A stretch of 6,746 bases of DNA, from IMG/VR virus record IMGVR_UViG_2663763286_000009, positions 1 through 6,746 of that record. The stretch is one strand, 5' to 3'. The notes below the pieces were generated by a model. It had not been told where the DNA came from and searched no databases. It worked only from the letters and a program-made list of their open reading frames with translations. This stretch comes from a virus (Duplodnaviria > Heunggongvirae > Uroviricota > Caudoviricetes). Positions within the stretch are counted from its first letter, which is position 1, and every line of letters starts with the position of its first letter. The position numbers were made by a program, and so were the translations under genes. Positions 5,475 through 6,746 of the stretch are shown here, in pieces.

Positions 5475-6671
5475 ATGAGCACAAAACCACTCTTCCTGTT
5501 ACGGAAAGCGAAAAAATCATCCGGTGAACCTGACGTCGTCCTGTGGGCAAGCAACGATTTTGAATCGACCTGTGCCACTCTGGACTACCTGATCGTTAAG
5601 TCAGGTAAAAAACTGAGCAGCTATTTTAAAGCTGTTGCCACGAATTTTCCTGTCGTTAATGACCTGCCCGCTGAAGGTGAGATCGATTTTACCTGGAGTG
5701 AACGCTATCAACTCAGCAAAGACTCCATGACATGGGAACTAAAACCGGGAGCAGCACCAGACAACGCTCACTATCAAGGCAATACCAACGTCAACGGCGA
5801 AGACATGACTGAGATTGAGGAGAATATGCTACTCCCAATTTCTGGCCAGGAACTGCCCATTCGTTGGCTTGCTCAACACGGCAGCGAAAAACCGGTAACG
5901 CACGTTTCACGCGACGGACTCCAGGCATTACACATTGCTCGGGCTGAAGAACTACCGGCTGTTACTGCCCTGGCTGTTTCCCACAAAACCAGCCTGCTCG
6001 ACCCGCTGGAAATTCGCGAACTCCACAAACTGGTTCGTGACACTGACAAAGTTTTCCCTAATCCTGGTAATTCAAACCTGGGACTGATAACTGCTTTTTT
6101 CGAAGCATACCTGAACGCTGACTACACCGATCGAGGACTGCTGACAAAAGAGTGGATGAAGGGTAATCGTGTTTCACACATCACTCGCACGGCTTCCGGT
6201 GCTAATGCTGGCGGCGGAAACCTCACCGATCGCGGCGAAGGTTTCGTACACGATCTGACGTCACTGGCGCGCGACGTAGCCACTGGCGTACTGGCCCGTT
6301 CAATGGATCTGGACATCTATAACCTTCATCCGGCACACGCTAAACGCATTGAGGAAATTATCGCTGAAAATAAACCGCCCTTTTCTGTTTTCCGCGACAA
6401 ATTCATCACCATGCCTGGCGGGCTGGATTATTCCCGCGCCATCGTGGTTGCGTCCGTAAAAGAAGCACCAATTGGGATCGAGGTCATCCCCGCGCACGTC
6501 ACTGAATATCTGAACAAAGTACTGACTGAAACCGATCATGCCAACCCTGATCCGGAAATCGTGGATATTGCCTGCGGTCGCTCCTCTGCCCCAATGCCGC
6601 AGCGAGTAACAGAAGAAGGAAAACTGAGGTGTACTGGCAATAGCGGACACTACCATTTGTTCTTTTTTTAA
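5475..6671 (+). CDS. recE: RecE (exonuclease VIII) N-terminal region; ORF closes after 398 codons, so the C-terminal nuclease domain expected for full-length RecE is not encoded in this frame
   Basis: Starts [46 protein letters not shown]..., recognised as the RecE N-terminus. GAGG 7 nt upstream of ATG 5475. Stop TAA 6669-6671 directly after a T7 run; stops occur in all three forward frames within 6607-6699. Confidence 0.75.
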
Positions 6672-6746
6672 GCAGCCATCTGATGATATTTTTCCCTGAA
6701 GGCTGCCGGGGAGATATTCCCCAGACGAGAGTGACGACGCTGACGA

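Follow-up and report, generated by a model that had tools for sequence, protein, structure and literature searches.

Evidence for an IS600 insertion that closes the recE reading frame of a Rac-type prophage

In a Rac-type prophage segment of 6,746 nucleotides (IMG/VR record IMGVR_UViG_2663763286_000009, positions 1 to 6,746; hereafter the window), the recE gene has almost certainly received an IS600 element, inserted after nucleotide 1150 of the gene with its transposase directed opposite to recE. We interpret this insertion, and not a frameshift in a run of T residues, as the event that closes the reading frame, i.e. as an ordinary gene disruption. IS600-disrupted recE is already known, being present in public databases.

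According to the ORF listing of the window, the gene lies on the plus strand at 5475..6671 and comprises an ATG start, 398 codons and a TAA stop at 6669-6671, as the original prediction had described it. The closest characterized counterpart used for comparison is RecE of the K-12 Rac prophage (exodeoxyribonuclease VIII, 866 aa), which in a tblastn search matched window positions 5475-6623 at 100% identity with its residues 1-383; for residues 384-866, no match was found anywhere in the window. This confirms that the frame is a Rac recE cut short in comparison with the 866-aa protein and devoid of the C-terminal nuclease domain, and it contradicts the suggestion that RecE might continue past the stop. 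At the nucleotide level, megablast of positions 5475-6746 against 5,426 complete E. coli genomes recovered the recE part at 99.9% identity in K-12 and many other strains, confined to query positions 1-1150. The K-12 match ends exactly at query position 1150, corresponding to window position 6624; in the alignment to K-12 recE, which had been put forward as a check, identity is hence lost before the T run is reached. The window thus contains a 5' fragment of Rac-prophage recE at 5475..6624 on the plus strand (nucleotides 1-1150, comprising codons 1-383 and one base, the first, of codon 384), and the complete frame at 5475..6671 on the same strand is a chimeric ORF made of 383 RecE codons, 15 IS600-encoded codons and TAA. 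The order of kilR, ydaE and racC upstream of recE is that of K-12 Rac, and residues 1-383 are identical to those of K-12 RecE; unlike the latter, the product of the window ORF lacks residues 384-866 and carries a 15-residue IS-encoded tail.

The position of the breakpoint is given by a three-way alignment of the window, K-12 and E. coli strain 95_0274. The window equals K-12 up to ...GGAAAAC (GAAGAAGGAAAAC) and diverges at 6624/6625: K-12 continues with AGGATGATGAAG, and the window continues with TGAGGTGTACTGG / TGAGGTGTACTGGCAATAGCGGACACTACCATTTGTTCTTTTTTTAAGCAGCC, which corresponds base for base to the IS600 end in strain 95_0274. For the stretch from this point to the window end (positions 6625-6746), about 2,900 of the 5,426 complete genomes contain an IS600 end that agrees with it at 100% identity; the matched ends are annotated as 'IS3-like element IS600 family transposase'. 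These 122 nt represent the terminus of IS600 (IS3 family) downstream of orfB, with the transposase on the minus strand, and are cut off by the window end. They begin with the canonical TG of the element (TGAGGTGTACTGGCAATAGCGGACACT). An imperfect terminal inverted repeat (again TGAGGTGTACTGGCAATAGCGGACACT) occupies approximately 6625..6651; its positions 1-6, 10-12, 17-18 and 20-27 match the reverse complement of the other IS600 end in the complete 1264-bp copy of strain 95_0274. Furthermore, the minus strand at 6668..6746 encodes the last 25 codons of orfB and its stop (6670-6668), and their translation reproduces exactly the C-terminus of the IS600 transposase annotated in that strain (WP_085948186.1). 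The window holds only these last 25 codons of the orfB transposase (DDE / rve), which ends just inside the terminal repeat.

The T run consists of seven T residues at 6663-6669 and falls into the IS600 spacer that separates the inverted repeat from the stop of orfB. Its description as seven T's followed by the stop is correct as to length and place, but the seventh T is itself the first base of TAA and not the base preceding it. The run is identical in the IS600 copy of 95_0274, in four further IS600 loci that we compared (L007-L010) and in all IS600 ends of 100% identity; a T run is lacking from the equivalent place in K-12 recE, and recE homology stops 38 nt before the run begins. Both the run and the stop TAA belong to IS600 itself, so that the run is not a recE homopolymer, and the last 15 of the 398 codons are read-through into the element. 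The two stops overlap: that of the chimeric frame (plus strand, TAA 6669-6671) and that of orfB (minus strand, 6670-6668) share the palindrome TTAA at 6668-6671.

The distribution of stops in the forward frames agrees with the original prediction, which had reported stops in all three frames followed by two open ones. The frame of 6607 contains TAA at 6607 and TGA at 6625 and 6697 and is open thereafter to the window end; the frame of 6641, which had been read from 6644, contains only TAG at 6641 and is likewise open thereafter; the recE frame contains TAA at 6669 and TGA at 6681, 6684, 6732 and 6741. The two frames that are open to the window end span 47 and 103 nt only and carry no statistical weight; after the stop they run antisense to orfB. 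A RecE continuation in a shifted frame does not fit these downstream frames, which are antisense to the transposase gene and have no RecE similarity; nor is recE found on either side of the T run, as a homopolymer-frameshift pseudogene or a programmed frameshift would imply, IS600 being present on both sides.

With respect to protein domains, full-length RecE homologues carry both the Exonuc_VIII region (Pfam: PF06630) and the PD-(D/E)XK nuclease domain (Pfam: PF12684). The former, N-terminal region is recorded for the identical ORF in two sister contigs described below; the latter, C-terminal domain is absent from the window according to the tblastn search with residues 384-866. Lacking PF12684, the frame is a gene fragment rather than a functional member of the RecE family. 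By the same token, we consider recE in the window a pseudogene, whose 398-aa product would keep only the N-terminal Exonuc_VIII region. In RecE, exonuclease activity resides in the C-terminal ~260-280 residues, and the N-terminal fragment should therefore be inactive as a nuclease.

Transposition of IS3-family elements proceeds by a copy-out/paste-in mechanism. In the proposed course of events, IS600 would have been pasted into recE at 6624/6625 with orfB pointing against recE; translation of the recE 5' fragment would then enter the terminal inverted repeat of the element, gain 15 foreign codons and end at the TAA that overlaps the orfB stop of the opposite strand. By analogy with strain 95_0274 and from what is known of the IS3 family, the element, 122 nt of which lie in the window, would be a complete IS600 of 1264 bp, and the event a simple insertion in which 3 bp of the target, by prediction AAC, were duplicated. 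The same analogy suggests that recE would be left as a split pseudogene, that the remaining 1.45 kb of recE as well as recT would follow the element, and that recT is probably subject to a polar effect. A simple insertion predicts the other IS600 end (…GGCTACCTCA / …GTTAAACTCAGGCTACCTCA) and, directly after it, recE from nucleotide 1148 onwards (AAC-AGGATGATGAAG / AAC-AGGATGATGAAGAAAAACC). The downstream chimeric ORF modelled for such an insertion with AAC duplication is MPFYFRKECPLNSGYLKQDDEEK. Exact look-ups of this ORF, modelled on six RecE backgrounds, gave no match. Among the cluster representatives of a collection of 5.8 billion proteins, the ORF was likewise absent; only full-length or otherwise truncated RecE were retrieved, none of them starting with MPFYFRKECPLNSGYLK. 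Both searches are weak tests of a simple insertion, since the C-termini of RecE vary by 5-11 residues between strains and gene callers may prefer an internal start, the Met at RecE residue 406 (MEPDATEHH...), over the start of the modelled ORF.

A comparable case outside recE is an IS600 insertion with a 3-nt target sequence that inactivates lacZ in STEC O121:H19 (PMC9397093). As in the window, the gene is disrupted by an IS600 transcribed opposite to it, the target in the window being recE instead of lacZ. The lacZ copy can be excised by the IS-excision enhancer (IEE), which acts on IS3-family elements (PMC9397093); the recE insertion could likewise be reversible, if iee is present.

Upstream of recE, the window continues as a prophage segment of the Rac type, with the gene content DUF1627', ydaV-like, a 262-aa gene, ydaT, ydaS-like, an HTH repressor, kilR, ydaE, racC and recE'. 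On its left, the window is bounded by another IS3-family element, a relative of IS629/IS1203, whose right end lies at 1..161 on the plus strand and which truncates the minus-strand DUF1627 gene. The C-terminus of its orfB translates on the plus strand, the element ends with ...CCGGGGCGGTTCA at 161, and prophage matches begin at 162. Copies of 99.6% identity to this element occur in STEC genomes; window positions 1-189 are 93% identical to IS1203 copies. Between the two IS repeat ends lie 6.46 kb of unique DNA. Hence, the window has the appearance of a short-read contig delimited by repeats. Assemblies of this kind break at such sequences, and for this reason the window and the two sister contigs described below end inside the IS, and the rest of IS600 and the DNA beyond it are missing. 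The host belongs to an IS-rich, probably Shiga-toxin-producing E. coli lineage.

The whole query 5475-6746 is covered in only two of the 5,426 complete genomes, those of strains 95_0274 (NZ_CP074785.1) and 88_1577 (NZ_CP074804.1), where the annotation under the match reads 'RecE family exodeoxyribonuclease | IS3-like element IS600 family transposase'. In 95_0274 (locus L001), IS600 is complete (1264 bp, 7195-8458, TG...CA ends) and flanked by a 3-bp GTT duplication. The element is annotated there with 'programmed frameshift'; the joining of orfA and orfB by a programmed -1 frameshift is a characteristic of IS600. In the same strain, recE is split into two pseudogene fragments, with the recE 3' fragment and recT located after IS600, and in both strains PGAP (NCBI) marks the two recE pieces that flank the transposase as pseudogenes. 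The two strains share with the window the disrupted gene, the element, its orientation and the IS end that adjoins the recE 5' fragment. Their insertion, however, follows recE nucleotide 1194, whereas that of the window follows nucleotide 1150 and thus lies 44 nt less far in the 3' direction; the upstream prophage region of the window differs from theirs; and the two strains display the IS with both of its ends together with the GTT duplication, whereas the window shows one IS end. A 100-nt probe across the window junction is absent from the 5,426 complete genomes according to megablast; it is covered only by these two strains with the insertion at +44, in two pieces. A 41-nt exact pattern of the junction gave 0 matches in the species-representative genome collection (GTDB).

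The partial likeness to these strains bears on the alternative that survives best, although we consider it unlikely: the junction could be the scar of an IS600-associated rearrangement, such as an adjacent deletion, an inversion or a recombination between copies, by which the recE 3' part and recT were deleted or moved. The other side of the IS has never been seen for the lineage of the window, and IS600, present at up to 43 places per genome, offers many copies as recombination substrates. In 95_0274, that IS end is found, identically oriented, at a site 44 nt deeper in recE. A specific version of this scenario starts from an insertion of the 95_0274 type (after nucleotide 1194), followed by a 44-nt deletion adjoining the IS end; it predicts GTT-GAACAGGGAG directly after the other IS600 end. 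On the other hand, the last base of the recE fragment directly abuts the TG terminus of the element, which is expected of a primary insertion, and the prophage backbones of the window and 95_0274 differ in gene content upstream of recE, which favours independent insertions. A rearrangement would in any case leave the reading of the T run and the stop unchanged.

The two IS600-recE junctions (window 6624; 95_0274 7194) are 44 nt apart, have the same orientation, fall into an acidic linker region and belong to different E. coli lineages. That they represent independent insertions brought about by a target hotspot or by selection is a reading to which we attach very little probability. If selection were involved, the insertion would separate an N-terminal part that is dispensable from the C-terminal nuclease domain and recT, and the nuclease domain and recT might then be expressed alone, in a putative RecET activation of the sbcA-like kind. 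With the IS oriented in this way, the recE 3' part would adjoin the transposase-upstream end of the element rather than a known outward promoter. As for the target DNA, the sequences adjoining the same IS600 end at six sites are A/G-rich and end with AAC, CAG or GTT (for example GAAGAAGGAAAAC, GAAGATCGAACAG, GAAGCAGGAAC, GTAAGAAAAAAC), in a biased sample composed of window 6600-6624, 95_0274 7150-7194 and L007-L010, the latter four having been picked by BLAST similarity to the window flank. These A/G-rich flanks may indicate a target preference of IS600.

An assembly artefact, i.e. an erroneous join of recE to an IS600 repeat within a chimeric contig, is less probable still. The IS repeats that bound the window at both ends are typical of short-read contigs and would fit such an error; yet the exact junction and the 398-aa chimeric ORF occur in two other draft E. 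coli assemblies, in contig JHMZ01000110 of GCA_000617785.1 (L003; 11 substitutions relative to the window) and contig AAXHKH010000118 of GCA_015518445.1 (L004; 1 substitution), so that the same junction recurs in two further contigs that differ from the window by 1-11 SNPs elsewhere. The join, moreover, lies exactly at the IS terminus TG and not at an arbitrary shared k-mer, and an analogous, fully resolved insertion exists in the two complete genomes. Contig AAXHKH010000118 extends 753 nt into IS600 with 3 mismatches and ends there; it carries a 235-residue product with Pfam matches to HTH_21, rve and rve_3. Given its recurrence in further draft contigs, the junction is reproducible and does not stem from an error in one assembly. 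GenBank contains the chimeric protein, by exact match, under EYY99549.1 and EGP6269716.1 as 'exodeoxyribonuclease 8 [Escherichia coli]'. Of the 11 substitutions that distinguish the window from JHMZ01000110, ten are grouped in a 200-nt stretch of the DUF1627 gene (329-522), and the sole other one over 6.7 kb is found at 3794; this pattern suggests a local recombination patch or paralogous prophage copies collapsed in the assembly. Among other truncated RecE N-terminal fragments, sought in a 90% cluster of 168 members, those inspected are mostly contig-end partials or frameshifts rather than IS600 tails.

The probability of a T8-to-T7 frameshift, real or a sequencing error, that closes recE while the protein continues in another frame is negligible, since nothing beyond the adjacency of run and stop speaks for it, and against it stand the missing T run in K-12 recE, the end of homology 38 nt upstream, the antisense nature of the downstream frames without RecE similarity, and the location of the run within IS600, where it is unchanged in thousands of copies.

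The insertion of IS600 also settles the explanations originally offered for the short frame. As the T run and TAA are native to IS600, the homopolymer frameshift is refuted, and so is the idea of a modular short variant whose N-terminal domain is made separately, the tail of the ORF being IS-encoded. A small insertion came closest of the three options: the type of event was named correctly, but what was inserted is an insertion sequence, of 1264 bp where complete.

For the biology of the prophage, the finding is of little significance, as it adds one more IS-disrupted gene of a cryptic prophage. Read-level checking of the T run is unnecessary. As it does not lie where the insertion is found in the complete genomes, the window junction could be used as a marker of the lineage. 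For the RecE family, the 398-aa entries named 'exodeoxyribonuclease 8' are IS read-through artefacts of a pseudogene, and not a short variant of RecE.
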